A DNA stretch of 64,000 nt from a phage: the NCBI GenBank assembly GCA_020279385.1, contig GCA_020279385.1_4762.1; one strand, given 5' to 3'. Below are positions 5,722-51,186 of this stretch, one piece after another; position 1 is the first letter of the stretch, and the number at the start of each line of letters is the position of its first letter. The notes below the pieces were generated by a model that ran no database searches, was not told the origin of the DNA, and saw only the letters and a list, made by a program, of their open reading frames with translations. The translations under genes were made by a program, and so were the position numbers.

Positions 5722-6489
5722 TTATCTGCACCCGTACTGGTCAACATAGATTTTAGAGTGTCCTTGTTCGCGGACTTCTAAGCGAATGATATCGCTATCC
5801 TGTTCACGCCACACATAATACTTTTTATTTTCTTTCCAGCCGCTAAAAACGATCATTCCGTTGTCATCAACTACTCGTTTTGTGTTTGCCTTATGAACAT
5901 CATTATTGTCGATGTATGTAAAATGGATAATCTGACCATCTTTTACTTTCAGAGTCAATTCACCTGGATTGTATTCTTTATAAAAAGGCTGTTCTTTCGG
6001 CTTAGTGTTTGCTCCGTCGATATTTTTCCATTTAAAGTGAGATTCACATTGCAAGGTAAACTCGCTGGTTTGTGGTTTCTTTTCTTTCTTCGGTTGCTCT
6101 ACCACTTTTTCTTCCTGTTTCGGTTGTTCTTCTTCAACCTTCGCAGAAGTCTCTGAATCGCTTTCTGACGCTGTTTCTTCTTTAGGTAATACATTCATCA
6201 AGTTTTGGATTTGAGCGTTATATACAGCCTCCAGTGGCTGAATCTGCCCGATATTGATCATTGTATCACGAACGGTTTTATTCCAGTTGCGTTGCTCTTG
6301 TTTCAGAGACGGATCAATCTTAACAGCCTTAACATATACTTCATGAAGTTTAGAATCCAGTGCTGAGATTGACTCATTAGCACAAATAAACTTCTCTGAT
6401 TTGGTAGTAGCTTTAGCGCAATCAAAGGACGCAGCATTAGCACCGAAAGCAGTAGCGGAAAGAACGATAGCAGCGATAATGTTTTTCAT
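5722..6489 (-). CDS. Secreted DUF1311/LprI-like domain protein (255 aa) with signal peptide
   Basis: N-terminal signal peptide MKNIIAAIVLSATAFGANA; DUF1311-like pattern FDCAKA...EKFICANE...LDSKL...VY...EQRNW; acidic/Lys-rich linker; C-terminal domain. Confidence 0.7.
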   Translation of the reverse strand: MKNIIAAIVLSATAFGANAASFDCAKATTKSEKFICANESISALDSKLHEVYVKAVKIDPSLKQEQRNWNKTVRDTMINIGQIQPLEAVYNAQIQNLMNVLPKEETASESDSETSAKVEEEQPKQEEKVVEQPKKEKKPQTSEFTLQCESHFKWKNIDGANTKPKEQPFYKEYNPGELTLKVKDGQIIHFTYIDNNDVHKANTKRVVDDNGMIVFSGWKENKKYYVWREQDSDIIRLEVREQGHSKIYVDQYGCR

Positions 6490-6517
6490 AATATATTCCT
6501 TAATGTTTTGTCTTGAT

Positions 6518-6552
6518 GGGAGTATCTTACTACTCCCTTAATCCGGTGTCAA
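6518..6552 (-). promoter_or_regulatory. Early sigma70-type promoter with stem-loop (PeSL-like) upstream of the LprI-like gene
   Basis: rc reads TTGACA-17nt-TAAGAT; inverted repeat GGGAGTA/TACTCCC flanks the -10. Confidence 0.65.
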
Positions 6553-6560
6553 CTATTTTT

Positions 6561-6716
6561 TTAAATTTCTTCTACAGTAAAGTCTTCAATGTTATTGTGC
6601 TCGGAGAACGTTGCCAGACCAGCATTCCATGCATCATCCTCAGAGAAGAATACACCGTAACGTTCATATCCTTTAGCGCCTTCAAATTTAACCATTAATT
6701 TGTGAGTATGTTTCAT
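6561..6716 (-). CDS. Hypothetical small protein (51 aa)
   Basis: SD AAGGAG before ATG at 6716; longer track ORF would overlap its own promoter. Confidence 0.5.
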   Translation of the reverse strand: MKHTHKLMVKFEGAKGYERYGVFFSEDDAWNAGLATFSEHNNIEDFTVEEI

Positions 6717-6747
6717 TTTGATTCTCCTTCGTTGTCTTGATGAGTTC

Positions 6748-6776
6748 ATTGTAGGGGATCGGCGATCCCCTGTCAA
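6748..6776 (-). promoter_or_regulatory. Early promoter with spacer palindrome (PeSL-like)
   Basis: rc TTGACA-GGGGATCGCCGATCCCC-TACAAT; perfect palindrome fills the 17-nt spacer. Confidence 0.65.
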
Positions 6777-6786
6777 CAACTATTTT

Positions 6787-6999
6787 TTAATTTTTACCCG
6801 CTCGTGCATTAATACGCATTTTCTGAATAGCCATGATCTGGCTTACTGCTTCTTCTTTACGTTCTTGCGTGATAACGTGACCAGATTCCGCAAACTCTCC
6901 CGCAACTTCTTCTACGATCTCGCGAACTTGAGAACGTCCAAAGATGCGGTTTCCTTCGTAGCCCATAAATTCAGTCACTACTTGCTCAATAGATTTCAT
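6787..6999 (-). CDS. Hypothetical protein (70 aa)
   Basis: SD AAGGAG upstream. Confidence 0.55.
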   Translation of the reverse strand: MKSIEQVVTEFMGYEGNRIFGRSQVREIVEEVAGEFAESGHVITQERKEEAVSQIMAIQKMRINARAGKN

Positions 7000-7026
7000 G
7001 TGATTCTCCTTCTTTCGTTTCGGTAT

Positions 7027-7061
7027 GGGAGTATCTTACTACCGACGACCTTTGGCGTCAA
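7027..7061 (-). promoter_or_regulatory. Early sigma70-type promoter
   Basis: rc TTGACG-17nt-TAAGAT followed by ACTCCC as in other cassettes. Confidence 0.6.
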
Positions 7062-7235
7062 CTAATTTTTATGGAATTTTAAATTATCTTCGACCTTCAC
7101 CCATTCCGCGTATTCTTGCGCGGCTACTTTCGGATTTAGGCCGTCTTCGTACATTGCTTCAAGTAATTCTTCGTCGGTGGGCTTATACCCTAGATAAGCC
7201 TCCACCTGATTTTTCCAAATTTTATACCAGTTCAT
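7062..7235 (-). CDS. Hypothetical small protein (57 aa)
   Basis: Internal ATG following stop of upstream gene; start uncertain. Confidence 0.4.
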   Translation of the reverse strand: MNWYKIWKNQVEAYLGYKPTDEELLEAMYEDGLNPKVAAQEYAEWVKVEDNLKFHKN

Positions 7236-7239
7236 ATTA

Positions 7240-7512
7240 TCACCAATCAAGAGCGCGTGTCTCTGCGTCTTCCCATGCTTGATCCATAACAGCCTTGAAA
7301 ACATATTCTAAAGTATCATCTTTCGAGAATCCGAAGATCTTAGACGGAATATCTTCAATTGCTACTCCCGCGACTTCCGCATTACGCGCTTGGCAATAAT
7401 GCAACTCTAAGTTATCGAGATAGCGACCGCCTAATTTCTCCATATCATCCCAGCATTTCCAGTAACCTACTTTATCTGCAATTGCCAACACTTTGCTGTT
7501 TTCGTTGTTCAT
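7240..7512 (-). CDS. Hypothetical protein (90 aa)
   Basis: SD AAGGAG before ATG at 7512. Confidence 0.55.
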   Translation of the reverse strand: MNNENSKVLAIADKVGYWKCWDDMEKLGGRYLDNLELHYCQARNAEVAGVAIEDIPSKIFGFSKDDTLEYVFKAVMDQAWEDAETRALDW

Positions 7513-7543
7513 CTTTGATTCTCCTTTTGTTTGGTATGGGTGT

Positions 7544-7572
7544 ATTATGCAATGCTGGATTATGGAAGTCAA
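7544..7572 (-). promoter_or_regulatory. Early sigma70-type promoter
   Basis: rc TTGACT-17nt-CATAAT. Confidence 0.55.
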
Positions 7573-7583
7573 ACAACTTTTCA

Positions 7584-7612
7584 AATAAAAAAGCCGACCA
7601 CAAGGATCGGCT
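7584..7612 (-). terminator. Rho-independent terminator (- strand)
   Basis: Hairpin AGCCGACC-ACAA-GGATCGGCT with A-run on + strand (U-run on - strand transcript) just after stop at 7623. Confidence 0.7.
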
Positions 7613-7622
7613 TAATAGTCAG

Positions 7623-14402: not shown

Positions 14403-14589
14403 TTTGATTCTCCTTTGTTACTAGATAACGAATTTGGTCTTGCATTGCGATCAGTTCCCAGCGTGCTACTTTCATCATGGAAACTGACTCTTTGAACATA
14501 ATATTAGCTTTTTCCATCTCCCCTGTCAAGTAGATTTCTGCAATTTTTTCACAAAATTTTTGAGTTTCTTCATTCTTAAACGGTTTCAT
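14395..14589 (-). CDS. Hypothetical protein (64 aa from first ATG)
   Basis: Track ORF begins with TTG at 14598; first ATG at 14589. Confidence 0.5.
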   Translation of the reverse strand: MKPFKNEETQKFCEKIAEIYLTGEMEKANIMFKESVSMMKVARWELIAMQDQIRYLVTKENQNA

Positions 14590-14619
14590 ATAAGTCAACC
14601 TTTTGTTTTCGATGGGGAC

Positions 14620-14648
14620 ATTATGATATATCCCCGATCCAGTGTCAA
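14620..14648 (-). promoter_or_regulatory. Early promoter with inverted repeat around -10 (PeSL-like)
   Basis: rc TTGACA-17nt-CATAAT; GGGGA/TCCCC arms flank the -10. Confidence 0.6.
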
Positions 14649-14655
14649 CAGATTT

Positions 14656-14955
14656 TTAATCTTTTTTCAATGCATCCATTACTCGCTCTGCGATCAGTTC
14701 TCGTAAGCACTGATAACCATGATATTTGATGGCAATGTCACGCAGATCATTAACCAGTTCCCGTACTTCATGGTCTTTCAGATCGTCTCTGTATTTCGAT
14801 TTAATCGTATCTTTAGGTGGATTGCGGATAACCTGAAAACCTTGTTCTGCAATCACTGCGGCTTCTCGCTGGCGTTCATGCTGTACTGTATTTTTGATCA
14901 GGTCTGCTTCCATGAACTTTGCCATACTCATCATCATGTTATTCTTTTTGCTCAT
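14656..14955 (-). CDS. Hypothetical protein (99 aa)
   Basis: SD GAGGA before ATG at 14955; longer track ORF overlaps the promoter. Confidence 0.55.
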   Translation of the reverse strand: MSKKNNMMMSMAKFMEADLIKNTVQHERQREAAVIAEQGFQVIRNPPKDTIKSKYRDDLKDHEVRELVNDLRDIAIKYHGYQCLRELIAERVMDALKKD

Positions 14956-14978
14956 TATTAAATCCTCATAAAAGAAAA

Positions 14979-15017
14979 GGGAGACTCCCATTATAGAGAA
15001 TCTCCCTTGTATGTCAA
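14979..15017 (-). promoter_or_regulatory. Early promoter with flanking inverted repeat, immediately downstream of gp39 stop
   Basis: rc TTGACA-16nt-TATAAT; GGGAGA/TCTCCC arms flank the -10. Confidence 0.6.
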
Positions 15018-15020
15018 GTG

Positions 15021-16844
15021 TTATGATTGCATCCAAATTTTGCGGCGGTTTGAATCTTCGCTATAGAGCAAATCGAATAGCTCTTTATAGTTTTCCGGTA
15101 ACGTGATGATCTCCATTACAGGATCGTTGATCACGCGATGATAGTCTGATTCTGTGAGCGATGCTAAACCTTTGATATATCGAATGTTGTAACCTTTGAT
15201 ATTATCTCGATCGTTCTCGAAATCTTCTAGGTCATAATACCATCGAACATCATCACCTTTCTTTGGTTCAGCAATGATAATAGGTGTTTTGATAAACCGG
15301 ATTCGTCCATCTTCGAACAATTCAGGCCAACGTGCAAAGAAAGAGATCAGACTAGGTTTAATAGACCCGATCCCGTCAGTATCAGCGTCGGTCATAATCG
15401 CAATATTTTTGTATTGCATAACTTCCAATGCATCAACACCAAATTGCAAGCCAGTGATCGCCATGATGTTAAAAATTTCGGCGTTCTTAACGATCTTTGC
15501 CTCTGGTTGTTCCCACGTTGTAAGAGTTTTGCCTCGCAACGGGAAACCGCCATGTAAATCTTGATCACGTACAGAGATCAGATAGTTGATCGCGGAATCA
15601 CCTTCCGTCAAAAACAGGGTAGTTTCTGCGTCAGTTCCAATAAGGTTAGCTTTAACGTGTTTTGCTACCTTAGCCCGTTTCGCTGCCTTTGCTGCCTTAG
15701 TCGCTGCCGCTTTATCTGCTGCCTCTTTGCGTGCCAGGACTACAGCAATAATAGGCATGATAATGTTTTCTTTCTTCGCAATGACTTTAGCCAGTTTTTT
15801 AAAATCCAGATCAATATGACGCTTGATATCACCAGTTGGATTAGTCAATCGTTCTTTTGTCTGTGAATCAAAGCGCAAGTTAGGCAATTCACGAACAATA
15901 AGAATACAGGTCAATCCAGATTTAACCGCAGCTTTAGTAACATCAACCTTATATTCTTTCTTGATTCGTTTTACAATCTCTTCACAAAGATCATCTGTCA
16001 CATAATCAACGTGTGTTCCCCCGTTTTTGGTAAACAGACCATTAGCAAAGGATACTGATTTAAAACCTTCACCCTCAACCGCAGGAACTAGGGCAAGTGA
16101 AAAGTTTTTATCTTCAATGACAAACGGATCATCATTGTATAGTTTAGCATAATCCTTGAACTTACTAACAATGCGTTTACCATTAAACTTAAACGTGATC
16201 TTAGGAAAGATTACGCTCAATGATTGCAGACGATCATGAACAATATCTAAAACAGAGTTGTCCATCATATAACCTTCGAAGTGGTCGAAGTCTGGACAAA
16301 ATGTAACCTTCGTTCCCTTCAATTTTGATGGTTTTGATGACCATGTGATATTTTCAGCACCGTTTGTGCATTGAACGGTCATTTCTGTTTCGCCGTCACA
16401 GGTCACACCAGTAAACCAATCGCTAAAGAAATTTGATAACGACGACCCAACACCGTTCATCCCTTGCGTTAATCGATTGGTATCATCAAAGTTAGACCCT
16501 GCTTTTGTTCGTGTCCATGCGGCTACAGGTTGCGGAATCTGCGTGCCCTCTGGGGTAGTAACCATATGTTGAGGAATACCGCGACCATTGTCTGTTACCG
16601 TAACAATATTGTTTTGGATATCGACGCTAATCACATTGGCAAATTCAAAGTTAGTGCGGATCGCCTCGTCTACAGAGTTGTCGATGATCTCATCAATGAT
16701 TTTAACCAGTCCAGGAACGTATGAAATTTTTGTCCATTTACCGAACAGGAAACGTTGATGTTCTTCGTAAGTTGTTGATCCTATATACATTCCTGCACGC
16801 TTAAGGACATGTTCACGATCAGATAAAATGCGAAACTCACTCAT
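15021..16844 (-). CDS. 39: DNA topoisomerase II large subunit gp39 (GyrB-like ATPase + Toprim; uninterrupted 39+60 type)
   Basis: 607 aa; GyrB-like N-terminus (ILSDREHVLKRAGMYIGS), ATPase and Toprim regions. Confidence 0.9.
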   Translation of the reverse strand: MSEFRILSDREHVLKRAGMYIGSTTYEEHQRFLFGKWTKISYVPGLVKIIDEIIDNSVDEAIRTNFEFANVISVDIQNNIVTVTDNGRGIPQHMVTTPEGTQIPQPVAAWTRTKAGSNFDDTNRLTQGMNGVGSSLSNFFSDWFTGVTCDGETEMTVQCTNGAENITWSSKPSKLKGTKVTFCPDFDHFEGYMMDNSVLDIVHDRLQSLSVIFPKITFKFNGKRIVSKFKDYAKLYNDDPFVIEDKNFSLALVPAVEGEGFKSVSFANGLFTKNGGTHVDYVTDDLCEEIVKRIKKEYKVDVTKAAVKSGLTCILIVRELPNLRFDSQTKERLTNPTGDIKRHIDLDFKKLAKVIAKKENIIMPIIAVVLARKEAADKAAATKAAKAAKRAKVAKHVKANLIGTDAETTLFLTEGDSAINYLISVRDQDLHGGFPLRGKTLTTWEQPEAKIVKNAEIFNIMAITGLQFGVDALEVMQYKNIAIMTDADTDGIGSIKPSLISFFARWPELFEDGRIRFIKTPIIIAEPKKGDDVRWYYDLEDFENDRDNIKGYNIRYIKGLASLTESDYHRVINDPVMEIITLPENYKELFDLLYSEDSNRRKIWMQS

Positions 16845-16947
16845 TATTAAACCTCTTCATAACATAACCATAACTTACTGCAACCGCCACAAAGACGGCT
16901 GCAACAATCATATTAAAAATTGAGTGATTGTCAAGTATATGACTCAT
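16837..16947 (-). CDS. Possible 36-aa hydrophobic microprotein coupled to gp39 start
   Basis: rc reads MSHILDNHSIFNMIVAAVFVAVAVSYGYVMKRFNNE; ATGA overlap upstream, stop overlaps gp39 start. Confidence 0.3.
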   Translation of the reverse strand: MSHILDNHSIFNMIVAAVFVAVAVSYGYVMKRFNNE

Positions 16948-17117
16948 GACACGCGCACATTTTTATCATAGTACCCGCCATTAATCCCGCGCGGGGCAGT
17001 TAATCCCTGTTTGCATTCTTTACCACATTCAGGGCATTCTGCCTTTTCACGCTCGGAAATTTTGCGGATTTTCTGAAATTGACCGTGTTCTTCACAAGAA
17101 TAATCGTATAATGGCAT
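16944..17117 (-). CDS. Zinc-ribbon small protein (FmdB-like CxxC...CPxCG)
   Basis: MPLYDYSCEEHGQF...CPECGKEC; start moved to internal ATG after dexA stop. Confidence 0.55.
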   Translation of the reverse strand: MPLYDYSCEEHGQFQKIRKISEREKAECPECGKECKQGLTAPRGINGGYYDKNVRVS

Positions 17118-20094: not shown

Positions 20095-20849
20095 TATAAA
20101 CCTACCTTCGCTTTCATCAATTCAATCCACGACGCATCAATCGGAAGCCCGTATTTCACGCGTTCTTTTTGTGCTGGCGTTAAGTTCTCATACTTAGAAA
20201 GAGATTCAATCAAAACGCTGGTATATTTTAGCACGATTTCGGTATTGTTTGCAATAGCCTTAAGTTTTTCTTCTTTCTTGTTGATTTCGCTAAGGGCTTG
20301 CTTGAGATCTGCAATTTTCTGATAACGTTCTTCCATACGTAAGAGAGTATTTTTAATCGCTCGCTCGGCTGCCTCTGCTTTCTCCGGTTCGTTGTGCTTT
20401 TTGTGGCGCTCTATTGCTAATTTCTTTTCTTCGATTGCCATTTCCTGATTTTTGATGCGATTCTCGTTAAGTTCGATCCACTCGATGTACTTCGCACGTA
20501 GGGCAATTTCATCATCAGAAAGTTTACCGTTAGTTCCTAGTTCCTGGATCTCTTTAAGAGATTCGATAGTGTGATTGCCATGGAAAGAATTGTATTTCAG
20601 TTTAACCGGAATTACATTGCCATCAACATATCCCAGATTGCAATCAATGCGCTCTAAGGAGAGTCCATCATCACCTTCACCGAAAGCCTCACCGGAATAG
20701 GCGCAATGAGTCTGACGGTAAATGTTACGCACAGTGACTAAGCTCATAGAGAAGTCTTTGTTGCGACGTGAAGCGCCAGCCATGATAGAGTTCAGACGGA
20801 AAACAACCAGCGCCAATTCTTCGTTAGATTTAAAAGCAAACAGTTTCAT
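20094..20849 (-). CDS. Hypothetical coiled-coil protein (251 aa; T4 dda.1/srd position)
   Basis: SD AAGGAG upstream; identity not established. Confidence 0.55.
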   Translation of the reverse strand: MKLFAFKSNEELALVVFRLNSIMAGASRRNKDFSMSLVTVRNIYRQTHCAYSGEAFGEGDDGLSLERIDCNLGYVDGNVIPVKLKYNSFHGNHTIESLKEIQELGTNGKLSDDEIALRAKYIEWIELNENRIKNQEMAIEEKKLAIERHKKHNEPEKAEAAERAIKNTLLRMEERYQKIADLKQALSEINKKEEKLKAIANNTEIVLKYTSVLIESLSKYENLTPAQKERVKYGLPIDASWIELMKAKVGL

Positions 20850-20878
20850 AATTGATTCTCCTTAGTTGGTATGTGTGT

Positions 20879-20907
20879 ATTATTGTCTATCTGGTTTGTG
20901 CTGTCAA
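20879..20907 (-). promoter_or_regulatory. Early sigma70-type promoter
   Basis: rc TTGACA-17nt-AATAAT. Confidence 0.5.
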
Positions 20908-20910
20908 CAC

Positions 20911-21414
20911 TTAAATTAAAGAAAATTTGTAAATCTCTATCAGATCGCCGTTACACGCGTAAACTTCCTCGATCTCATCAAGGATCATGGTCGTCCCTGT
21001 CTTGTATATGCACTCGCGCTCATCTGCCAACATAGCATACAAAGACAGTCGAGTAGTCGGATTGTCATACTCTTTAGACACCACTCGGTCAATAGCATGT
21101 TCGTAATAATTCATGCAAGGCTTGGTAGGTTTTATTGCAATAATCTTTCCTGTTGCATAAACATCGGTTGCAAAGTCCTCTGCTGTTGATTGCAGTGGCG
21201 TAAAGCTCATAGGACGCTCTACAACGAAAGAATCGCCTACAATTAAGGTATCCAGCTTACGGCCTTCTCTTTTGCTCACACCGCGATACAAGGCTTCATG
21301 ATGCACTAACCGCTCAGTCTTTTCGATCAATCCATTAAGGATCGACATATCGATATTTTCTTTAGAGTTCATCACTTCATCAATGATGTTAAGTTCTTCT
21401 GGTGTAAATTGCAT
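20911..21414 (-). CDS. modA: ADP-ribosyltransferase, ModA/ModB-like
   Basis: ART signature: R (ALYRGVS), S-T-S-like (SFTPLQST), E-x-E (ADERECIY); start at internal ATG with SD GGAGG. Confidence 0.7.
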   Translation of the reverse strand: MQFTPEELNIIDEVMNSKENIDMSILNGLIEKTERLVHHEALYRGVSKREGRKLDTLIVGDSFVVERPMSFTPLQSTAEDFATDVYATGKIIAIKPTKPCMNYYEHAIDRVVSKEYDNPTTRLSLYAMLADERECIYKTGTTMILDEIEEVYACNGDLIEIYKFSLI

Positions 21415-21418
21415 AATA

Positions 21419-21448
21419 AAAAAAGCCTCCAATCTTTCGACGGGAGGC
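21419..21448 (-). promoter_or_regulatory. Hairpin plus U-tract in the modA leader that sequesters the SD (terminator/attenuator-like)
   Basis: - strand RNA GCCUCC-loop-GGAGGC then UUUUUUUAUU then AUG; the 3' arm is the SD. Confidence 0.45.
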
Positions 21449-21496
21449 ATAATAAAACCATTATAGAGTAGTGTCAATCACAAAGTGTATGTGATC

Positions 21497-21504
21497 TATA
21501 AATA
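21497..21504 (+). promoter_or_regulatory. T4-type late promoter TATAAATA upstream of HNH endonuclease gene
   Basis: Exact TATAAATA about 30 nt upstream of ATG at 21534, then SD AGGAG. Confidence 0.6.
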
Positions 21505-28439: not shown

Positions 28440-28667
28440 CTATTCAGTTAATCCGTAATACTTTAATTGCTTCATTGTTATTCGATCTTTGTAGTGCTCT
28501 TGAATTAACTTTTTCATCGCACCAACATCGATCGTCACAAATACTTCGTTGCTGTGATTTCCGTGAACTTTCTTGAAATGCTCTATGCCTTCCTCACGTT
28601 CACGTTTAATCTTTTCAATGTCTCTCATAGTATATTTCTCACATTGGCGGGTATCGTCACCCAACAC
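28440..28667 (-). CDS. Hypothetical protein (75 aa; start uncertain)
   Basis: Only ORF between uvsX and gene 43. Confidence 0.45.
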   Translation of the reverse strand: MLGDDTRQCEKYTMRDIEKIKREREEGIEHFKKVHGNHSNEVFVTIDVGAMKKLIQEHYKDRITMKQLKYYGLTE

Positions 28668-28689
28668 CCGCCATTATACACACTTTATC

Positions 28690-31368
28690 TTAAATGTCAA
28701 ACAGGTCTGTAAGAGATGCCACTTTTTCATATTGCAGCTTTGTAGCCGTGGTAATGTTCTCCAGTGGTTTGACAAAAGTCTTATTAAACAACAAAGGCCA
28801 GTCTAACCACTTTAACACCTCGCTTTCAATTTCTGGAGGAATACGAGTACCGGACAACCAACCAAAACAGATTTCTCCAAACGGATTTCGATCTTTAAGC
28901 GGTACAATCATAACCTTCTCGCCCTCACGAATCGGATCTAGTCCAAATTTTCGAGCATTACGATTATAACACAATACACTCTTAACCGCATACGGACAAC
29001 CCTTAATCGGATACCCGTTTGAATCGCTGTATTTCTGTAGGTTGTTTGCAGATGATACCGCAGCAACCTCAAGATAGTCAAGTTTTCTAAACTCTTGCTC
29101 AAAAATACCGTAGTATTCCTGTAGCGATTCTTCCCCTTCCTGCAACATACGGCGAATACATTCTTTCAGTGATTTCTGACATGCTTTAGGGGTAGAGCTA
29201 CGTTGCGTTTCCAAGCCCATGATTTTTAGCTTAGGTTCAGCAAATCGCGTTCCTTCCATATCCCAAACATTAAGAGCATAACGCTTTTTACCAGTCCAGA
29301 ATCCACCGATACCCGCAGATTTCAACGGAGGACCAGCAATTGCTTCACGGTCCATAAACATCAAGTGCTCATAGTTGTTCATGTACTCGCATAACTCGCG
29401 ATATCCCTTGTCGATAATAGGTTCCATTCGATGTTTACCGAAATTATCAAGGAAGTCAACAAGTTTTTCGGTATCGTCGAAACGGTCTTCCCCGCCAACC
29501 TTATCAACAACATTGTTAACCAGCACATAAACGGAGTCAGTATCACAATAACGAACATATGCAAAATCGGTTGTTCCGCAAAGCTCGTTTAAGTATTCGT
29601 TAATCTTACGCTCAATCCACTGAATTGCAAGCTGACCGAACAGTGTGATCGCACTAGCGTTACGGAGATCATAAAAACGGAATTTAGGATTCCCCAACGC
29701 ACCATAAAGGGAGTTGATCAAAACTTTTCGAGAAAGCTGGTTTGTATTGCACAAGATCGACTCGTCTTTACATTCTTCCAGCAATTTCTCTAAGGTATCT
29801 TTGCTTAATTCAGAAAGCATCGATTTAAACGCTTCATCGAAGTCGTGACGCACTTCAACGCTATAGCTAATGGTTCCCCCATAAACATGATTTTCATCGT
29901 GTAGAATCGCTTTACATAGTTCAGCATTGCGATCACATGCCAACATCATGTTTTTGTACTGCTTACGCTGATCGAATACCTTTTTAATCTCAATCGGTAC
30001 GATACCATGAATATCTTTTCTATACATCCATCCGTTAGGCGAGCAAGAATACTCATCACTCGGACGTGGTGCAGTTTTATTGATATACTCGTGCATCGGT
30101 GCAGCATCAAAAGATCCGGCGATTGTTTCAGGCGAAATATTAACCTGTCGAATAATAGATGGATACAGACTTGTTAAGTCAAAGCTCATCATCCAACGGT
30201 AAGCATTAGGTACTGGCTCTTTTACAAATGCGCCCGGATAAGTCTGCTTAGGCTGTATCTTGTTCTCCGGTACTACTTTACCCTCAGCTTTCAGAGATCC
30301 GAAAATAATAGCATCCCATACTTTCATCGGGTTATAAACATGGTTAAATTTAATCTTTGCATAGAAACATAGACTATACACAAGATCGATAAATCCACGC
30401 TTTTTATCAATCGCCAGCACACGATCAACGTCGCCGATGTTATAATCGATGTAAAGTTGATGGTTATCATCGCGCAATTTCTTTAACGGACCATCATAAT
30501 CAACCTTACCGATTCCTGTCTCATATTCAGCAACATAATCTAACGCATATGTTGGTTGAGTCGTAAAGCTAAATTTCTTGTACAGGTCAATATAATCAAG
30601 GCTTTCGATCCCCATGATCGTAAATGCTTCACGCTCGTTACCAAAATCATCCTGTGAGATTCGGGATTTAATCTTACCGCACGGGCTTAGACGGTTAGCG
30701 GTTCTACTTCCGAACTTATTACTGATACGTTTAATGATATATGGAATATCGAATGTTTCTGTGTTCCAGCCAGTGAAACCAACGGGTCGGTTTTCCTCAA
30801 AGAATCGGATGTATTCTAACAGCAATTCATCTTCTGTGTCATAGACGTTATAAACAACGCGCTCTACAATATCAGGTCGAAGAATAGACTTGCTAGATTC
30901 CCAGATTTCACCGTTTTTTCCTTTCAAATCAAATACAAAGAAACGATCATGTACGGAATCATAATGCGTAATTGCATCGATAGGATATTTCGCTTCTTCT
31001 GGTTTAGGAAATTCTGGGGCAGTGACCTCAATATCAACCCATGCTACACGGATTTTATTTCGGTCATATCGAATCTCGCCTTTATATGTATCGGACAGAT
31101 AGGAGATGATAAAATCATCCATCCCTAGTGCCTCCTGCCCCATTTCTCCCATCTTTTTACGCCATTTGTTGGCCTCGTTCATAGATGGGAATTTTTTAGC
31201 AATGCAAGGCTTGCCGTAGATATCTTTATAATTCGTAACCATACCAGGCGCGGCATGATGAAATAAAGTTGGCGTATATTCAACGTAACGCTCTTGTTCT
31301 TGTCCAGCATCATCAATATAACGCTCGTAGATCTTATCACCCACTCGCTCACATGACAGAAAATACAT
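28690..31368 (-). CDS. 43: DNA polymerase gp43 (family B)
   Basis: Exo motifs (FDIE), pol motifs (SLYPSII, YCDTDSVYV); N-terminus aligns with T4 gp43; SD AAGGAG before ATG at 31368. Confidence 0.95.
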   Translation of the reverse strand: MYFLSCERVGDKIYERYIDDAGQEQERYVEYTPTLFHHAAPGMVTNYKDIYGKPCIAKKFPSMNEANKWRKKMGEMGQEALGMDDFIISYLSDTYKGEIRYDRNKIRVAWVDIEVTAPEFPKPEEAKYPIDAITHYDSVHDRFFVFDLKGKNGEIWESSKSILRPDIVERVVYNVYDTEDELLLEYIRFFEENRPVGFTGWNTETFDIPYIIKRISNKFGSRTANRLSPCGKIKSRISQDDFGNEREAFTIMGIESLDYIDLYKKFSFTTQPTYALDYVAEYETGIGKVDYDGPLKKLRDDNHQLYIDYNIGDVDRVLAIDKKRGFIDLVYSLCFYAKIKFNHVYNPMKVWDAIIFGSLKAEGKVVPENKIQPKQTYPGAFVKEPVPNAYRWMMSFDLTSLYPSIIRQVNISPETIAGSFDAAPMHEYINKTAPRPSDEYSCSPNGWMYRKDIHGIVPIEIKKVFDQRKQYKNMMLACDRNAELCKAILHDENHVYGGTISYSVEVRHDFDEAFKSMLSELSKDTLEKLLEECKDESILCNTNQLSRKVLINSLYGALGNPKFRFYDLRNASAITLFGQLAIQWIERKINEYLNELCGTTDFAYVRYCDTDSVYVLVNNVVDKVGGEDRFDDTEKLVDFLDNFGKHRMEPIIDKGYRELCEYMNNYEHLMFMDREAIAGPPLKSAGIGGFWTGKKRYALNVWDMEGTRFAEPKLKIMGLETQRSSTPKACQKSLKECIRRMLQEGEESLQEYYGIFEQEFRKLDYLEVAAVSSANNLQKYSDSNGYPIKGCPYAVKSVLCYNRNARKFGLDPIREGEKVMIVPLKDRNPFGEICFGWLSGTRIPPEIESEVLKWLDWPLLFNKTFVKPLENITTATKLQYEKVASLTDLFDI

Positions 31369-31450
31369 AATATAAACTCCTTCACTTACGAAAGACACTC
31401 ATTATAGGGGAATCGACTTAGTTTGTCAATACCCCTATCCCATCAGTATC

Positions 31451-31813
31451 TTAGCGTCCGATCTGATATTTCTCGATCAGCGTCCACTCTTCTTTCTGTT
31501 TGAAAGACAGTACACGGAAATTATTAACTTCGGTAGTTTCAAAATCACTATCAATCAGGGTACACAGATTCCACTGCGCCAGAAGTTTTGCAATGTTATT
31601 ACGGCGTAATTCATCTTCCCACGTCATTTTAACACTACGACCATCTAATTTCAACAACTCCTTGAAATGAACGATGTAATAGCGCCCCTTCTTCTGGAGA
31701 ATATGACAAGACTGATACAGTGTCTTGTCTCGATTGTTGGCAATGCCGCAGCGGGTTAAAGTCTCCTTAATTTTAAGGAAGTTTTCAGGACTAATTAAAT
31801 TAATTTCAATCAT
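31451..31813 (-). CDS. regA: Translational repressor RegA
   Basis: 120 aa, near-identical blocks to T4 RegA (KETLTR.GIANN.DK.LYQSCHILQKKG.YYIVHFKE). Confidence 0.95.
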   Translation of the reverse strand: MIEINLISPENFLKIKETLTRCGIANNRDKTLYQSCHILQKKGRYYIVHFKELLKLDGRSVKMTWEDELRRNNIAKLLAQWNLCTLIDSDFETTEVNNFRVLSFKQKEEWTLIEKYQIGR

Positions 31814-32393: not shown

Positions 32394-33367
32394 TATACGA
32401 ACTCCAATTCAACCATTAATTGCATTAACAAAAAGACAATGTGAATCTCTTTATCAGCCGCGTGCGCAAACATCTGATTATTTTCACCGATAATCTCGGT
32501 CAGACGAATAATCGACGCTGGCTTAACTTGAGTATACAACTCATTATAAAGTTTCTTGACAAATTGAGAGTATGTATTGGTATATCGCGGTGCAAGTTTA
32601 CGCACATTAGCAAACTGTTTAGTTTTAAGTGCTTCCACCACTTCGGTTACTTCGGTATTGCTACTTTCGATAACCATGCTCAATACGCCAGCATCAATTT
32701 TACCATGTTTAGCGTAGCGGTCCAAAAGTTTCATTACGCGTCGGAAGTCGGGGAAGTTCTGCTTAACCAATTCCGCTAATACGCGCATTTCTTCTACTGG
32801 CACACCTTCTTTATCAAGAATTGCTTTACACCGGACGATCATTTCTTTCATCATGCGAAGCTGATCATCTTTAGTCGGAGATCCAAACGTGATGGGGTCA
32901 AATCGAGATCGTAACGCTGGGATAATACCTTCTAGATCGTTTGCTGTGATAATGAATGTCACGTTGTTTGAGTATGCCTCAGAGAAACTACGCAAGTGTC
33001 TTTGAGCGTCAGCCAACCCCGCTCGGTCATACTCATCGATAATAACAACTTTGCCTTTTTCTCTTTTTTCTTCATCGAGTGATACACTCTGCGCAAAGCG
33101 TGTAATCTCATCGCGGATAAAATCAATCTTACAATCTGCGCCGTTAACAAACAGATAATCAACACCCACATCTTCGCAAAGCGCCTTAGCAACGGTTGTT
33201 TTACCAGTACCTGGCGATGGGCTATGCAGGATCATAGAAGGGATTCGGCCTTGCTTAACAATCTGCGCGAAGATCTTTTTATCTGCTTCCGGCAGAATAC
33301 ATTCAGAAATTGATTTCGGACGGTATTTCTGTTCCCACTGAAACTCATTTTCATTAACACTCAGCAT
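32393..33367 (-). CDS. 44: Clamp loader ATPase gp44 (AAA+)
   Basis: Walker A SPSPGTGKTT, Walker B VVIIDEYD; colinear with T4 gp44; SD GAGGTGA before ATG at 33367. Confidence 0.9.
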   Translation of the reverse strand: MLSVNENEFQWEQKYRPKSISECILPEADKKIFAQIVKQGRIPSMILHSPSPGTGKTTVAKALCEDVGVDYLFVNGADCKIDFIRDEITRFAQSVSLDEEKREKGKVVIIDEYDRAGLADAQRHLRSFSEAYSNNVTFIITANDLEGIIPALRSRFDPITFGSPTKDDQLRMMKEMIVRCKAILDKEGVPVEEMRVLAELVKQNFPDFRRVMKLLDRYAKHGKIDAGVLSMVIESSNTEVTEVVEALKTKQFANVRKLAPRYTNTYSQFVKKLYNELYTQVKPASIIRLTEIIGENNQMFAHAADKEIHIVFLLMQLMVELEFV

Positions 33368-33432
33368 ATAATCACCTCTCACAAATTACATCATTAAAAC
33401 GGGGAGTATTTACACTCCCCACAAACATTATA

Positions 33433-34122
33433 TTAGTCGGTGTAGCTGGAGTCAAGGTCACACGCGATCATATAAGATACGGTTTCACTTGCCAGCCATA
33501 CAGCCTTACGGCGAGTGAAGCTCAGTTTGTAATCTCCGAAGTCCGTAGCAACCAGTTTCATGTTATCTTTACGAATAAAGAAATGGAAGTCGGCGGTTCC
33601 GGTATATTCGCCCATATCAAGACAAAACATCTCATTAGGATTATTTTTGTCAATCTCTTCCCAACCTTTGATCATCAGACGACCATCAATCGGTAGAAAT
33701 TCAAGGCGATCCACTTTAAGCTGATTGCTCATTTTCATAAGCTGTTTCAGATCGTCGTTGCTCAGTTCGTAATCTACATCGCTTGCCGGTGGAGTAACTC
33801 GGCCTTTCGGTGATACGATAGCAGCAGCACTAGCACCAGGATAATTAATTTTCAGACGATCATTAGACACACGAATGTTACCAGTGCGGTTATCAACCGT
33901 AATATCTGCTTCATCGCCTACCAGATTCAGAATACCCAAGAAAGAGTTAAGATCATAGATCCCAATTTCGTGTTCCAGTTCTTGATTCAGAGTCGCTTCA
34001 CCATATACAACGTTTGTCATGTTTTTGGTGATCAGGACGTTTCCTTTTTTCAGGATGATACCTGGGTTAATAGCGGAAAAGTTTTTCAGGGTAGCAATGG
34101 TTTCTTTAGTCAGTTTCATCAA
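33433..34122 (-). CDS. 45: Sliding clamp gp45
   Basis: 229 aa; N-terminus MKLTKETIATLKNFSAINPGI resembles T4 gp45. Confidence 0.9.
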   Translation of the reverse strand: MMKLTKETIATLKNFSAINPGIILKKGNVLITKNMTNVVYGEATLNQELEHEIGIYDLNSFLGILNLVGDEADITVDNRTGNIRVSNDRLKINYPGASAAAIVSPKGRVTPPASDVDYELSNDDLKQLMKMSNQLKVDRLEFLPIDGRLMIKGWEEIDKNNPNEMFCLDMGEYTGTADFHFFIRKDNMKLVATDFGDYKLSFTRRKAVWLASETVSYMIACDLDSSYTD

Positions 34123-37932: not shown

Positions 37933-38180
37933 CGTACAGACCCCATAGATCCACGCGCAATAACATTCTGGGTAATATCAGCAACCTTACGAGATACGAT
38001 GTTTGTTAGCCCCTCTTTGGTGATATTTTCACGATCAAATGGGATTTCGTCATGAGTCCACAAACCATAGTTAGACCGAAATGATAGCATATACTGACCA
38101 TCTCGCACAACCTCAAATACATGGATCTTAGTGAATTTCGATAAACCTTCGTTGATTTCTTTCAGTGCATTAGTAATCAT
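37929..38180 (-). CDS. Hypothetical protein (83 aa from ATG)
   Basis: SD GGAGG before ATG at 38180; track ORF starts from TTG at 38192. Confidence 0.5.
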   Translation of the reverse strand: MITNALKEINEGLSKFTKIHVFEVVRDGQYMLSFRSNYGLWTHDEIPFDRENITKEGLTNIVSRKVADITQNVIARGSMGSVR

Positions 38181-38205
38181 AACAACCTCCAATCAATTTT
38201 TAGAG

Positions 38206-38234
38206 AGTATAACGGGGATTTCTCCCCGCGTCAA
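38206..38234 (-). promoter_or_regulatory. Early promoter with spacer palindrome (PeSL-like)
   Basis: rc TTGACG-CGGGGAGAAATCCCCG-TATACT; same palindrome as the cassette near 58090. Confidence 0.6.
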
Positions 38235-39260
38235 CTAACTTTTTGCGTTATTTACTTCGGCTAAAAGTTCATCAGAAATACGCTTGACCGCCGCAAGTTC
38301 TTCCGGTTCTAGGTTTTGTTCTTCCAGATATTCATAGACCATCTGAATAGTGCTTTTAACTTCAATAACACCTGTTTCCTGTGATGCGCTACTCTCCAGT
38401 TTATGGACCACTTTTAGCTTGTGTACAACGGCCTCTAACGCGCTTTCTAACTTAGTTAATCCATTATCAGCGACCGTTGCGATAAGACGCACACTAAGCC
38501 CTTTAAAGCGTTCTACATCGATTTTATCATCTGACGGGTAAGTGATACGCACATGATAAGTTTTGTCATTCTGAATAAACTCTTTTTTGTGTGTATCGGT
38601 ATCGAATACCCAAAACCCACGCGGATCGTTTTCGTCACCCGCCGTTAGTGTGTATGGTGCACCAATATACGTTACGTTACCGCCATCACTGATAGTATGA
38701 AAGTGACCCGAAAACACTTCACGGTATTTCTTGAGGAAGTCCGCGCTATAACCTTCGGATTTTAGCCCTTTATAGAAATAGTAACCGGACAATTCCCAAT
38801 GGCCTACACAATATTCGCTGAATGAGTTTTGAATAAACTCTAAAATCTCTGATTTATTGTCATCACAAAACCACGGGAACAGATCAAATGATACACCATC
38901 AAAGGTAACTGTTTCAGGTTTATCAATGACCTTAATGCAATCATACTGGCTTAACACTTCACGCGGTGCGTTAGGCTGGATCTTGTTTCGTTTAAACATA
39001 TCATGATTCCCGACCGTGGTATAACAAGTAATATCAGCCTCTTCCAGTAACGGGATGACCTTAGTACGGTTAAATTTCATGGTTTCATGGGTAATTGCTT
39101 TTCGGCAATCAAACCAATCCCCTGTTTGAATCCATGTCTTAATATTATGCTCTTTGGAGTATTCAACCGCTTTCTTGATGGTATCAAGAATATACTCATG
39201 CACCCACGGATCATCGCCACCGATACCAGTATGCAGATCACCTAAAAGCAAAATTTTCAT
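38235..39260 (-). CDS. 47: Recombination nuclease subunit gp47 (Mre11/SbcD-like)
   Basis: 341 aa; metallophosphatase motifs (LGDLH, GNHD, GHFH) and extensive identity to T4 gp47 (ITHETMKF, PNAPRE, FCVGHWEL, TAGDENDPRGFW). Confidence 0.95.
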   Translation of the reverse strand: MKILLLGDLHTGIGGDDPWVHEYILDTIKKAVEYSKEHNIKTWIQTGDWFDCRKAITHETMKFNRTKVIPLLEEADITCYTTVGNHDMFKRNKIQPNAPREVLSQYDCIKVIDKPETVTFDGVSFDLFPWFCDDNKSEILEFIQNSFSEYCVGHWELSGYYFYKGLKSEGYSADFLKKYREVFSGHFHTISDGGNVTYIGAPYTLTAGDENDPRGFWVFDTDTHKKEFIQNDKTYHVRITYPSDDKIDVERFKGLSVRLIATVADNGLTKLESALEAVVHKLKVVHKLESSASQETGVIEVKSTIQMVYEYLEEQNLEPEELAAVKRISDELLAEVNNAKS

Positions 39261-41901: not shown

Positions 41902-42188
41902 TAGAAACCCTTACGTCGTGCTTTCTGGCATTTCTTGATCATTTTATCAGAAATTTCGCGCTTAGGTGCAATCTCTTTCACACCGAAAGCACTAATGCCA
42001 AATTCAGAGAGAATATATTCAACTAACAATTCACGCACACGCGCTTTACCGATATTCACGCCGTTATTTTTCAGATATGTCTGGCCTTCGACTTGCATCA
42101 GATCTAAATCTGCGTCGGTAATATTGATTTCTTCCATGCGCCCAAATCGAGAATAAACCATGTGTGCGATTGCATTGTGTACTAACAT
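41901..42188 (-). CDS. Hypothetical protein (95 aa), coupled to the P-loop NTPase gene
   Basis: SD GAGGAA before ATG at 42188; stop overlaps the NTPase start (ATGA). Confidence 0.5.
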   Translation of the reverse strand: MLVHNAIAHMVYSRFGRMEEINITDADLDLMQVEGQTYLKNNGVNIGKARVRELLVEYILSEFGISAFGVKEIAPKREISDKMIKKCQKARRKGF

Positions 42189-42209
42189 AATATATTCCTC
42201 ACTCAAGAA

Positions 42210-42368
42210 TTACTTAATGATACTTACTTTACCAGATCCATGACAATGAGCGCAACACCCATCACCACGCAATCCTGTTCCGTTACAGTGTTTACACTTC
42301 TTCAACGGTAAAGCCATTATAGCAAATAAAGCAATAATGAATACCGAAACTAAATTCTCAATAATCAT
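42210..42368 (-). CDS. 52-aa membrane microprotein with DnaJ-like Cys-rich zinc-finger motif (not in ORF track)
   Basis: rc reads MIIENLVSVFIIALFAIMALPLKKCKHCNGTGLRGDGCCAHCHGSGKVSIIK; TM helix then CxxCxGxG...CxxCxGxG. Confidence 0.5.
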   Translation of the reverse strand: MIIENLVSVFIIALFAIMALPLKKCKHCNGTGLRGDGCCAHCHGSGKVSIIK

Positions 42369-45179: not shown

Positions 45180-45321
45180 ATTCAATTACCCCGAACTCGT
45201 TTACAATCTGCGCTTTATAGTAACCACCGCGAGATGCTAATAGATAAGCTGGGCTTAGGTATTCGTATTCACGGATTTCTACTTGTGCGTTTTCAGTTTC
45301 CCAAATCAGTAAAGTCCACAT
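45169..45321 (-). CDS. Possible small protein (50 aa) overlapping nrdG start
   Basis: rc reads MWTLLIWETENAQVEIREYEYLSPAYLLASRGGYYKAQIVNEFGVIEYEF; SD AGGAG upstream. Confidence 0.3.
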   Translation of the reverse strand: MWTLLIWETENAQVEIREYEYLSPAYLLASRGGYYKAQIVNEFGVIEYEF

Positions 45322-45363
45322 GTTCGATTCTCCTGTAAAGTTGTATCTCGTCTTGATGAATAT

Positions 45364-45392
45364 AGTATAGGGGATCTCGCGATCCCCGTCAA
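45364..45392 (-). promoter_or_regulatory. Early promoter with spacer palindrome (PeSL-like)
   Basis: rc TTGACG-GGGATCGCGAGATCCCC-TATACT. Confidence 0.6.
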
Positions 45393-45396
45393 GCGT

Positions 45397-45930
45397 TTAT
45401 TTTAAATTTTTTCGAATGTATTCAGACCATTCCTTCCCTGTCATTTCGGACCCGTTCTGGAAACTGAAATATTCATACGGCATCGAGTCAAGATAAAACA
45501 GGATCATACATCGCGCCATATAATACCAATCACGATTAAAGTAAACTACGTTATCACCAGTACCATCAGCACCTTTATCATAACCATCTCGGGTACGGGC
45601 GACCCATTGAATAGTATCATTTTTCTCACGGATAGTCACAGGTTCCCAATATCCAGCACATCCAGCATGACCACACGAACAAGTAAGGAAATATTGCCCT
45701 TTTGCTTTGTTGTCATCCCATTCACGATGGATTGGTTCGATCTCGTGAAACAGTGCCAAACAATCATGATTATGCAACACTGGCTTACCATCAATCAATG
45801 CATGGAATGTATACAAACGACCAGTAGACAAATAGCTATCCTCGCGCTCACAGAGTTCAATAGCAATCTTTTTAGCTCGTTCTTTGTGTCGTTGTGCTTT
45901 ACGTTTACGGTTTAATGATTTCATAGTCAC
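45397..45930 (-). CDS. Hypothetical protein (177 aa), Cys/His-rich
   Basis: ORF on early strand. Confidence 0.55.
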   Translation of the reverse strand: MTMKSLNRKRKAQRHKERAKKIAIELCEREDSYLSTGRLYTFHALIDGKPVLHNHDCLALFHEIEPIHREWDDNKAKGQYFLTCSCGHAGCAGYWEPVTIREKNDTIQWVARTRDGYDKGADGTGDNVVYFNRDWYYMARCMILFYLDSMPYEYFSFQNGSEMTGKEWSEYIRKNLK

Positions 45931-46480: not shown

Positions 46481-46508
46481 GTTGTCCTCTCTTTGTTTCG
46501 ATGTGAGC

Positions 46509-46536: not shown

Positions 46537-46542
46537 CACCCC

Positions 46543-46574: not shown

Positions 46575-46579
46575 AAAAA

Positions 46580-51183: not shown

Positions 51184-51186
51184 CTA

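Follow-up and report, generated by a model that had tools for sequence, protein, structure and literature searches.

Promoter-early stem-loops (PeSLs) were described in phages RB49 and phi1, with ~51-52 of them per genome (Arbiol et al. 2010, PMC2839356). A PeSL consists of an early promoter of sigma70 consensus, an AT-rich upstream tract holding the previous stop codon, a stem-loop, and a Shine-Dalgarno sequence (SD) followed by ATG. Its promoter is close to TTGACA and TATAAT at a spacing of 16-18 nt and reads in the direction of the early genes. The stem-loop is often of polyG/polyC type and occupies one of five positions (in the promoter spacer, over the -10, over the -35, in the upstream AT-rich tract or downstream of the -10), and the elements cluster in hyperplastic regions, where they precede ORFans, and flank gene 43 on either side (PMC2839356). 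Here, we analysed a 64,000-nucleotide (nt) stretch of phage DNA (contig GCA_020279385.1_4762.1, hereafter the window), in which a first-pass annotation made from the letters alone had noticed recurring promoter/stem-loop cassettes, foremost at 6518-7572, and had likened them to the PeSLs of RB49-like phages. This comparison proved correct: the phage belongs to Krischvirus at 94-97% identity, all features that define a PeSL at the sequence level are present (promoter, AT tract with stop codon, stem-loop positions, SD plus ATG, placement), and one cassette is nearly identical to RB49 PeSL211/210. We are very confident that the recurring promoter/hairpin units are PeSL cassettes of an RB49-like phage, with the roles in expression, insulation and recombination that have been proposed for such elements. 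For this genus, the literature already covers the elements themselves together with their name, subclasses and proposed function, and even one indel of the 6518-7572 region. Cassettes are named below by the first base of their -35 hexamer, and all lie on the minus strand (Table 1).

Judged by its sequence, the window phage is an RB49-like (Krischvirus) T4-type coliphage. RB49, JSE, Phi1, GEC-3S, Sf20 and others match at 94-97% identity, and all 59 records that matched a 2-kb and a 24-kb query are Krischvirus, with no identical record among them. The window has a G+C content of ~40% and carries almost all of its genes on the minus strand. It corresponds to the part of RB49 that starts in the distal tail-fibre genes, passes over the ends of the record into rIIB/rIIA and genes 39, 43, 46 and 47, and continues through nrdD and dam to regB. 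The span 6518-7572 adjoins gene 52 and covers the block of small open reading frames (ORFs) RB49p262-p267, all of which fall into PHROGs of unknown function. Read on the minus strand, it is made of four successive units (cassettes 6552, 6776, 7061 and 7572), each comprising a stop codon in an A-rich tract, TTGAC(A/G/T), 17 nt, a -10 hexamer, ~20 nt, AAGGAG or AAGGA, and ATG.

The promoter signal is strongly strand specific. Across the whole window, the pattern TTGAC[AGT]-N16/17-TA[TA][AG][AC]T has 22 matches on the minus strand and none on the plus strand, compared with a mean of 0.53 and a maximum of 5 in 300 dinucleotide-preserving shuffles, in line with the at least 19 minus-strand promoters of the first-pass annotation. 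Sites agreeing with at least 10 of 12 consensus positions number 70 on the minus and 9 on the plus strand, and 27 of the minus-strand sites are intergenic. A promoter is also present at every one of the 13 positions that had been listed (-35 starts at 6552, 6776, 7061, 14648, 15017, 38234, 45392, 49039, 50273, 51183, 55137, 55813 and 58111). The literal pattern itself needs correction, however: about six of its 22 matches are intragenic and have neither hairpin nor SD (62777, 42503, 35719, 22673, 14034 and 12076), while several genuine cassettes fall outside it on account of their -10 (TACAAT at 6776; CATAAT at 7572, 14648, 58404 and 59648). In the databases, the RB49 record annotates a 'hypothetical early promoter' at the counterparts of 28700, 31429 and 33455, and the GEC-3S, TB34 and Makalu records annotate promoters and terminators at other cassettes. 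The RB49 early promoter consensus fits 5'-end mapping, according to PMC1524935.

The hairpins follow the promoters. We required a contiguous hairpin with a free energy of at most -9 kcal/mol within -50 to +69 of the -35. Such a hairpin is present at 18 of the 27 intergenic promoters, whereas shuffles of the same segments yield a mean of 0.46 (maximum 3), and the rate is 12% at intragenic promoter-like sites (5 of 42; Fisher P = 4e-6) and 9.2% in random windows. The promoter footprint, which makes up 4.7% of the sequence, contains 19 of the 54 strongest hairpins of the window (binomial P = 2e-12). For 13 cassettes, RNAfold gives z-scores between -2.0 and -5.4, with the 7061 unit at the weak end. 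Thus, the claim that most promoters carry an inverted repeat holds, and it survives the test by which it was to be refuted, a lack of palindrome enrichment over shuffled sequence. All repeats that had been quoted were found, namely GGGGATCGCCGATCCCC at 6776, CGGGGAGAAATCCCCG at 38234 and 58111, GGGAGTA..TACTCCC at 6552, 49039, 50273 and 51183, and GCGGT..ACCGC at 55137. The hairpin counts of the two strands (54 versus 37) were not used as evidence, being confounded by base-composition skew.

These numbers also settle whether a loose promoter consensus finds the sites merely by chance in AT-rich DNA. A permissive scan (at least 9 of 12 positions, strands pooled, first 20 kb) did give no excess, with 53 sites found against 56.9 expected, and shows that strand-specific strict patterns are needed. 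Chance is nevertheless refuted by the yield of the strict pattern, all of it on the coding strand, by the co-occurrence of hairpins and by the conservation of their position across relatives.

The cassettes fall into classes by the offset at which the hairpin starts, counted from the first base of the -35. In class A (offset +5, five copies: 6776, 38234, 45392, 55813 and 58111), the stem-loop fills the spacer. In class B (offset +9 to +15, seven copies: 6552, 14648, 15017, 49039, 50273, 51183 and 55137), the -10 lies in a 6-nt loop closed by the stem. This position is taken by stems of at least four unrelated sequences, each fully paired and with a 6-nt loop. Class C (offset -38 to -41, three copies: 7572, 46536 and 59648) carries a terminator with a T-run ahead of the -35. 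In class D (offset +27 to +33, three copies: 16934, 28700 and 33455), the hairpin lies downstream of the -10, and a single hairpin, at 42246 (offset -23), overlaps the -35. The stems are conserved in the orthologs of RB49, Sf20, Skers and KFS-EC, and the few changes lie in loops or exchange GU and AU pairs, as at 55137 (Skers, KFS-EC and Sf20) and 14648 (GU to AU in Skers). A fixed-loop search pattern for class A returned no match because loop lengths differ among the copies, and Rfam covariance models gave no match at the gathering score in the whole window.

Promoter and hairpin are parts of a larger unit of ~85-110 nt. The stop codon of the upstream ORF lies inside an A-rich, UP-like tract (on direct reading, TAAAAAAATAGTTGACA at 6552 and TAAAAAATAGTTGTTGACA at 6776), followed by a near-consensus TTGACA-16/17-TATAAT promoter and a conserved initial transcribed region (..CATCAAGAC / ..CATACCAAC). 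The 3' end is formed by one of two conserved ribosome-binding modules, AAGGAGAATCA..ATG or GAGGATTATATTATG, each present in nine copies in the window, on the minus strand only (e.g. 6499-6487, 48995-48979 and 50228-50212), and both freely combined with class A and class B promoters. As had been noted, a strong SD usually follows the promoter: in most cassettes, the ATG lies 25-42 nt after the -10 and is preceded by AAGGAG or GAGG. Both modules contain GGAG and GGAU. These are motifs cut by T4 RegB, and the window has a gene for a RegB homolog at 63471-63893 (Pfam REGB_T4, E = 1e-48).

An unbiased repeat search returned the cassettes as the two largest repeat families (44-61 nt, 62-100% identity): family D1 with five copies of 61 nt (reference copy 6734-6794) and family D2 with five copies of 44 nt, including 6517-6560 and 7026-7069. 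In family D6, 35 nt are 100% identical between 48979-49013 and 50212-50246. The genes behind the cassettes are mostly ORFans of unknown function, so that the description 'upstream of accessory genes' is largely apt, but cassettes also precede genes 39, 43, 44, srd and modB. Two of them, 28700 and 31429, flank gene 43.

The relation to published PeSLs extends to individual sequences. We aligned to the window cassettes the three RB49 PeSLs that had been tested experimentally or flank the model gene ORF192. Cassette 55813 is nearly identical to PeSL211/210 over ~85 nt, from the A-tract to the ATG, and cassettes 6776 and 45392 are of the same family as PeSL206/205 and PeSL192/191. In RB49, the stem-loop of PeSL211/210 lowered lacZ expression as much as rrnB T1 did, and the promoter of PeSL206/205 reached ~13,000 Miller units (PMC2839356). 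The stem-loop tested there has the same sequence as hairpin 55808-55790, and most class A and B hairpins have no U-tract.

A working scheme can be proposed for the cassettes. Unmodified host RNA polymerase with sigma70 would start early transcription ~7 nt after the -10 and so express the downstream, usually small, ORF. We have high confidence in this promoter function, given the sequence, the strand bias, the conserved position and the RB49 assays, reporter assays (PMC2839356) and published 5'-end mapping having demonstrated the step for the homologous RB49 cassettes. A stem-loop upstream of or at the start site would be transcribed only by polymerases reading through from upstream, and in such read-through RNA it may end, attenuate or 3'-protect the upstream transcript, which would make each gene an insulated module. 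An effect of this kind was shown in RB49 for the stem-loop identical to 55808-55790 and, by analogy, may hold for the others. Finally, as the main dispersed repeats of the early region, the cassettes would offer cores of 35-60 nt as homology patches for the phage's homologous recombination, and exchange between two cassettes could delete, insert or swap whole ORFs together with their own expression signals; the chimeric cassette of KFS-EC and the cassette-located junctions in other relatives, described below, are the footprint expected of such exchange.

Several points weigh against parts of this scheme. Promoter and terminator activity are carried over to the window from the RB49 reporter assays by analogy. 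The intrinsic-terminator pattern, a G/C-rich hairpin with a U-tract, occurs in four of the 19 promoter-associated hairpins (7613, 15008, 46574 and 59687), so that only class C and the 15017 cassette appear to have canonical intrinsic terminators. With the exception of 15017, the stems of classes A and B are not followed by a U-tract, the next 8 nt containing 1-4 T, and intrinsic termination is therefore not predicted from their sequence. Moreover, the hairpin seems dispensable for the promoter, as five strong intergenic promoters have none (20907, 21477, 57861, 58404 and 63447) and cassette 7061 has lost its own: the spacer reads CCAAAGGTCGTCGGTAG here but TAAAGAAATGGGAGTAG in RB49, Sf20 and KFS-EC, where the hairpin is intact, and between 7061 and 7033 the left arm is gone while promoter, right arm, SD and ORF are all retained.

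The inverted repeats might also act as double-stranded DNA, as operators for a dimeric phage or host protein such as an early repressor or a recombination factor recognizing GGGG..CCCC. Perfect palindromes placed exactly in the promoter spacer, such as GGGGATCGCCGATCCCC, and the GATC Dam sites in three class A copies would suit an operator, and a GGGG...CCCC-binding protein was speculated on by Arbiol et al. (PMC2839356). Nevertheless, we regard this explanation as most improbable, since the repeats comprise at least six unrelated stem sequences with loops of 3-6 nt at positions from -41 to +33 relative to the -35, and no candidate binding protein was identified. In addition, several stems contain G-T pairs, and the GU/AU swaps in orthologs keep the fold of a single strand and not the symmetry of the duplex, which favours a sense-strand RNA fold over a protein site on the duplex.

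The same G-T pairs bear on a second possibility, that the repeats work as DNA structures, either cruciforms or single-strand hairpins, which tune promoter opening to supercoiling or admit structure-specific nucleases and so create recombination hot spots, whatever their role as RNA. The -10 hexamer does lie in the loop of class B hairpins, the window encodes endonuclease VII and the SbcCD-like gp46/47, and the structures blocked sequencing reactions on single-stranded DNA (Arbiol et al., PMC2839356). Stems of 7-10 bp with loops of 3-6 nt are short for cruciform extrusion, however, and in RB49 the stem-loop alone lowered expression of a downstream reporter (PMC2839356). We consider a role as DNA structure very unlikely and retain the RNA stem-loop of the PeSL scheme.

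To follow the recombination role, we aligned the full-length window with RB49, Sf20, Skers and KFS-EC and examined five loci locally. Among the 25 records listed, the stretch of 1.9 kb around 6.5-7.6 kb comes in at least five length classes. An additional ORF of 261 nt (ORF263.1 of phi1) is present in Skers and E26, with its junction at 6785/6797, beside the -35 of cassette 6776; in the same two phages, ~500 extra nt with two ORFs are inserted at 7078/7080, where the A-rich tract of cassette 7061 lies. In Sf20, 6567-6797, that is, one ORF plus cassette 6776, is replaced by ORF263.1. A further ORF, of 207 nt, is found in UPWr_E1 and JK32; its junction overlap, 7508-7545, is the part of cassette 7572 from the -10 to the SD. 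Hence, three of the four cassettes within this kilobase are indel junctions in other isolates.

The clearest event is found in KFS-EC, which is without window 50273-51139 (a goF-like gene and an ORFan, p059-p060). In its place is a single chimeric cassette with the upstream half of 51183 and the downstream half of 50273, the crossover lying inside the shared hairpin/-10 core GGGAGTAGTAA(A/G)ATACTCCCA. By its junction sequence, this is a textbook PeSL-to-PeSL exchange. Matches in two pieces in further records, which had looked like widespread p059-p060 indels, were rejected, as they are joins to a paralogous goF-like gene; the cassette is truly lost only in KFS-EC.

At the site of cassette 58111 (58077-58115), 44 of the 59 records carry a g38 adhesin cassette of ~870 nt, and 13 are empty like the window. 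RB49 keeps g38 there, in the early-gene region, at a site that corresponds to cassette 58111 alone in the window, while the g38 tail-fibre adhesin gene of the window is found at 2102-2884 on the plus strand, directly after g37 (Pfam GP38, E = 1e-70); identity between the g38 proteins of the two sites is 57%. A smaller trace is seen in cassette 55813, where a 4-nt stretch of the hairpin loop, ACGT, equals that of RB49 PeSL211/210, from another hyperplastic region, whereas the orthologous site in RB49 and KFS-EC reads GGTG in a stretch of 120 nt that otherwise hardly differs. The pattern points to patch conversion among cassettes.

Not all early-region indels involve cassettes. Of 15 events, five are located at cassettes, five are due to homing endonucleases (two in the window, at 21534-22463 and 51968-52723, and three inserted in relatives, at 16791-16858, 27316-27320 and 39257-39261), four to exchange between tandem paralogs (18085-18206, 44144-44640, 56646-56783 and probably 4286-4495) and one to an in-gene repeat (43375-43405). 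Tested against a whole-sequence null, the share of cassettes is significant (P = 5e-5 to 5e-4). If viable indels are taken to end at gene junctions, ~23% of which carry a cassette, the excess seen with the four genomes compared is no longer significant, neither for the ten whole-gene indels not caused by homing endonucleases (5/10, P = 0.06) nor for all 15 (5/15, P = 0.26).

This null is the quantitative form of another explanation, by which the cassettes are regulatory punctuation only: densely packed early genes need a promoter and a 3' hairpin, indels end at cassettes merely because viable indels end between genes, and recombination is incidental. Besides the P values, several facts speak for it and against a general recombination role. 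Homing endonucleases alone account for as many indels as cassettes do, and together with tandem paralogs for more; the p059-p060 deletion occurs in one phage of 59 records; and the g38 site of RB49 is not flanked by two homologous PeSLs. Mere punctuation does not, on the other hand, account for cassettes being the largest dispersed repeat families, for the clean two-cassette chimera of KFS-EC with its crossover in the shared core, for the indel junctions at three of four neighbouring cassettes, for a clustered 4-nt loop replacement that equals a PeSL at another locus, or for the PeSL mini-circles reported for RB49 (PMC2839356). We hold punctuation alone to be a reasonable but on the whole less likely explanation. 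Recombination between PeSL cassettes remains our preferred reading; in view of the gene-junction null, its support rests on the junction anatomy and on the published work on RB49 and phi1. The modular shuffling named in the first-pass annotation is supported qualitatively by the comparison of relatives by which it was to be checked: five indel events are located at cassettes and the anatomy of the junctions fits, but no significant excess over gene junctions separates the two.

The two other sources of indels left traces of their own. Tandem paralogous small genes at 43108-44665, 56389-56868 and 18033-18378 (repeat families D4, D8 and D11) share stretches of 58-80 nt that coincide with gene-sized indels in KFS-EC, Skers, RB49 and Sf20; tandem paralogs are a second route of gene gain and loss, independent of PeSLs. 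An HNH/NUMOD3 homing endonuclease is encoded at 21534-22463 on the plus strand, opposite to its neighbours modB and gene 56, and gene 56 (dCTPase, 22387-22911, minus strand) is too diverged to align with the DNA of RB49, Sf20 and Skers; its divergence may be the co-conversion tract of the endonuclease. Similarity to RB49, Sf20, Skers and KFS-EC breaks exactly at the -35 of the modB promoter 21477, beside this gene, and the replacement 21477-22883, examined as a PeSL-bounded event, was rejected as such and counted as a homing-endonuclease insertion. A second homing endonuclease (HNH_3 plus AP2, 51968-52723, minus strand) lies between nrdC and dam and is present in Sf20 and absent from RB49, Skers and KFS-EC. 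The further insertions in relatives are those of Skers (16791-16858), Sf20 and KFS-EC (27316-27320) and RB49 (39257-39261, RB49p040).

Table 1. Early promoter cassettes of the window and sigma70-like promoters of the same region (all on the minus strand; hairpins given as arm/loop/arm).
Span	Type	-35	Hairpin	-10	SD	ATG	z-score	Remarks
6487..6575	class B	TTGACA 6552-6547	GGGAGTA/GTAAGA/TACTCCC 6537-6518	TAAGAT 6529-6524	AAGGA	6489	-2.66	RB49p262 homolog; upstream stop codon and A-rich tract; family D2
6714..6800	class A	TTGACA 6776-6771	AGGGGATC/GCC/GATCCCCT 6771-6753	TACAAT 6753-6748	AAGGAGAATCA	6716	-4.03	RB49p263 homolog; reference copy of family D1
6997..7085	degenerate class B	TTGACG 7061-7056	right arm TACTCCC retained, left arm replaced	TAAGAT 7038-7033	AAGGAGAATCA	6999	-1.97	RB49p264 homolog
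7510..7620	class C	TTGACT 7572-7567	AAGCCGATC..GGTCGGCTT 7613-7591, then TTTTATTT	CATAAT 7549-7544	AAGGAGAATCA	7512	-4.39	RB49p266 homolog
14587..14670	class B	start 14648	GGGGATAT/ATCATA/ATGTCCCC 14635-14614			14589		
14953..15040	class B + T-run	start 15017	13 bp, 15008-14977, encloses TATAAT; tail TTCTTTTAT			14955	-5.41	
16842..16960	class D	start 16934	16907-16875					upstream of gene 39
20847..20930	sigma70-like early promoter, hairpin-less	start 20907			AAGGAGAATCA			precedes srd
21412..21500	sigma70-like early promoter	start 21477						upstream of modB
28626..28725	class D	start 28700	28673-28645					3' side of gene 43
31366..31455	promoter	start 31429	long-range pairing ATAGGGG..CCCCTAT across -35 and spacer					upstream of gene 43
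33365..33480	class D	start 33455	GTGGGGAGTGTAAATACTCCCCGT 33422-33399					upstream of gene 44
38178..38260	class A	TTGACG, start 38234	GCGGGGA/GAAA/TCCCCGT 38229-38212			38180		
42186..42275	weaker member	TTGTCA, start 42246	GU-rich, 42269-42239, overlaps -35					
45319..45415	class A	start 45392	GGGGATC/GCGA/GATCCCC 45387-45370			45321		family D1
46478..46580	class C	start 46536	terminator 46574-46553, then TTTTCGTTT			46480		family D16
48979..49065	class B	start 49039	GGGAGTAT/GCTATA/ATACTCCC 49027-49006			48981		family D6
50212..50300	class B	start 50273	50258-50239			50214		downstream partner in KFS-EC deletion
51121..51210	class B	start 51183	ATGGGAGTA/GTAAAA/TACTCCCAT 51170-51147			51123		upstream partner in KFS-EC deletion
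55072..55160	class B	start 55137	ATGCGGTTAT/CATATA/ATGACCGCAT 55126-55101			55074		
55740..55835	class A	start 55813	AGGGGAT/CACGT/ATCCCCT 55808-55790			55742		
57750..57885	sigma70-like, hairpin-less	start 57861				57752		ATG 79 nt after -10
58051..58135	class A	start 58111	ACGGGGA/GAAA/TCCCCGT 58106-58089			58053		
58334..58430	sigma70-like, hairpin-less	start 58404			AGGAGAATCA	58336		
59587..59695	class C	start 59648	terminator 59687-59662, then T-run			59589		family D16
63382..63470	sigma70-like, hairpin-less	TTGACT, start 63447				63384		

Strong intergenic hairpins without a sigma70-like promoter are also found on the minus strand (10270-10252, 11651-11634, 25569-25554, 27347-27327, 39341-39314, 40441-40412, 48478-48459 and 54233-54209); with its clear T-run, the one at 39341-39314 is probably a terminator. 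The first gene after cassette 6552, the RB49p262 homolog (5722-6489, minus strand), encodes a weak LprI/DUF1311 (lysozyme-inhibitor-like) domain and a signal-peptide-like N-terminus, and the 3' third of this gene (5723-6088) is a diverged replacement with respect to all four genomes compared.

PeSLs have been proposed as a concrete mechanism for the modular evolution of large virulent phages, in which a unit of promoter, insulator and ribosome-binding site would allow ORFs to be gained, lost or swapped without disturbing their neighbours. Confirming them here is conceptually nothing new. What the window adds is a clean natural PeSL-to-PeSL exchange, the KFS-EC chimera, a cluster of cassettes within one kilobase most of which serve as junctions in other isolates, and the warning that no fewer indels come from homing endonucleases and tandem-paralog exchange. 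Annotators should label the sites as early promoters/PeSLs and treat each small ORF that follows as an early gene with expression of its own.

Similar promoters occur outside the genus. In exact-pattern scans of IMG/VR, class A and class B-like promoters were found in non-Krischvirus contigs of 174, 360 and 366 kb, whose proteins resemble those of ~350-kb jumbo phages at 26-35% identity. The architectures are of the type TTGACA-GGGGAT..ATCCCC-TATAAT or have a stem enclosing the -10. The 350-kb jumbo phage Munch of Salmonella has, in a stretch of 41 kb, TTGACAGGGGATTATTCATCCCCTATAAT followed by ..CCCATCGAC..AAGGAAAC..ATG, with a promoter of this kind at 15221-15249 of that stretch. In Munch and in the IMG/VR contigs, a leader of CATCGAC type and an AAGGAAA SD come after the promoters; these phages are not T4-like. 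That the spacer-filling and -10-enclosing hairpins are not intrinsic terminators, and that PeSL-type cassettes are shared across families of enterobacterial phages, is a joint proposal that we advance tentatively and regard as doubtful. If true, virulent enterobacterial phages of different families would have in such cassettes a common currency of regulation and recombination. Hairpins in the spacer or around the -10, with no U-tract and with substitutions that keep GU/AU pairing on the sense strand, may instead of terminating protect or process the 3' ends of upstream mRNAs or make polymerase pause at an occupied promoter.

Among other known systems, intrinsic terminators share the G/C-rich stem and T-run with 7613-7591, 46574-46553, 59687-59662 and 15008-14977, but class A and B hairpins differ in lying inside the promoter and, save for 15017, in having no U-tract. 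Integron cassettes (attC) are likewise small promoter-associated ORF cassettes with imperfect inverted repeats at their boundaries and circular intermediates, the latter reported for RB49; in the window, by contrast, each cassette has its own promoter, the junctions look like homologous exchange, and no integrase or site-specific recombinase is evident. Lambdoid morons (Hendrix et al. 2000) are single genes with their own promoter and terminator, and the conserved linkers of Botstein and Campbell target exchange to safe sites between genes. Morons, however, are not thought to be mobile by means of regulatory sequences and often lie on the opposite strand, whereas here the regulatory unit is itself the repeat (PMC2839356).

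T4/PST and KVP40/nt-1 have PeSL-like elements (Comeau, Arbiol, Krisch 2014; PMC4122927), as does the T-even internal-protein locus; they too are composite promoter/terminator motifs, sit between variable genes and have been proposed as recombination linkers. All of these elements are nevertheless analogs and not homologs, with T4-type early promoters and weaker AT-rich stems without polyG/polyC (PMC2839356). Compared with the PeSLs of RB49 and phi1 themselves (PMC2839356), the local peculiarities of the window are an empty g38 site at 58111, the absence of ORF263.1 and the degenerate hairpin of 7061, and the phi1-specific ORF263.1 of that study is one of the indels of the 6518-7572 region. Nothing essential differs: the genus, the architecture, the GGGG..CCCC stems and the placement upstream of ORFans and around gene 43 are the same.

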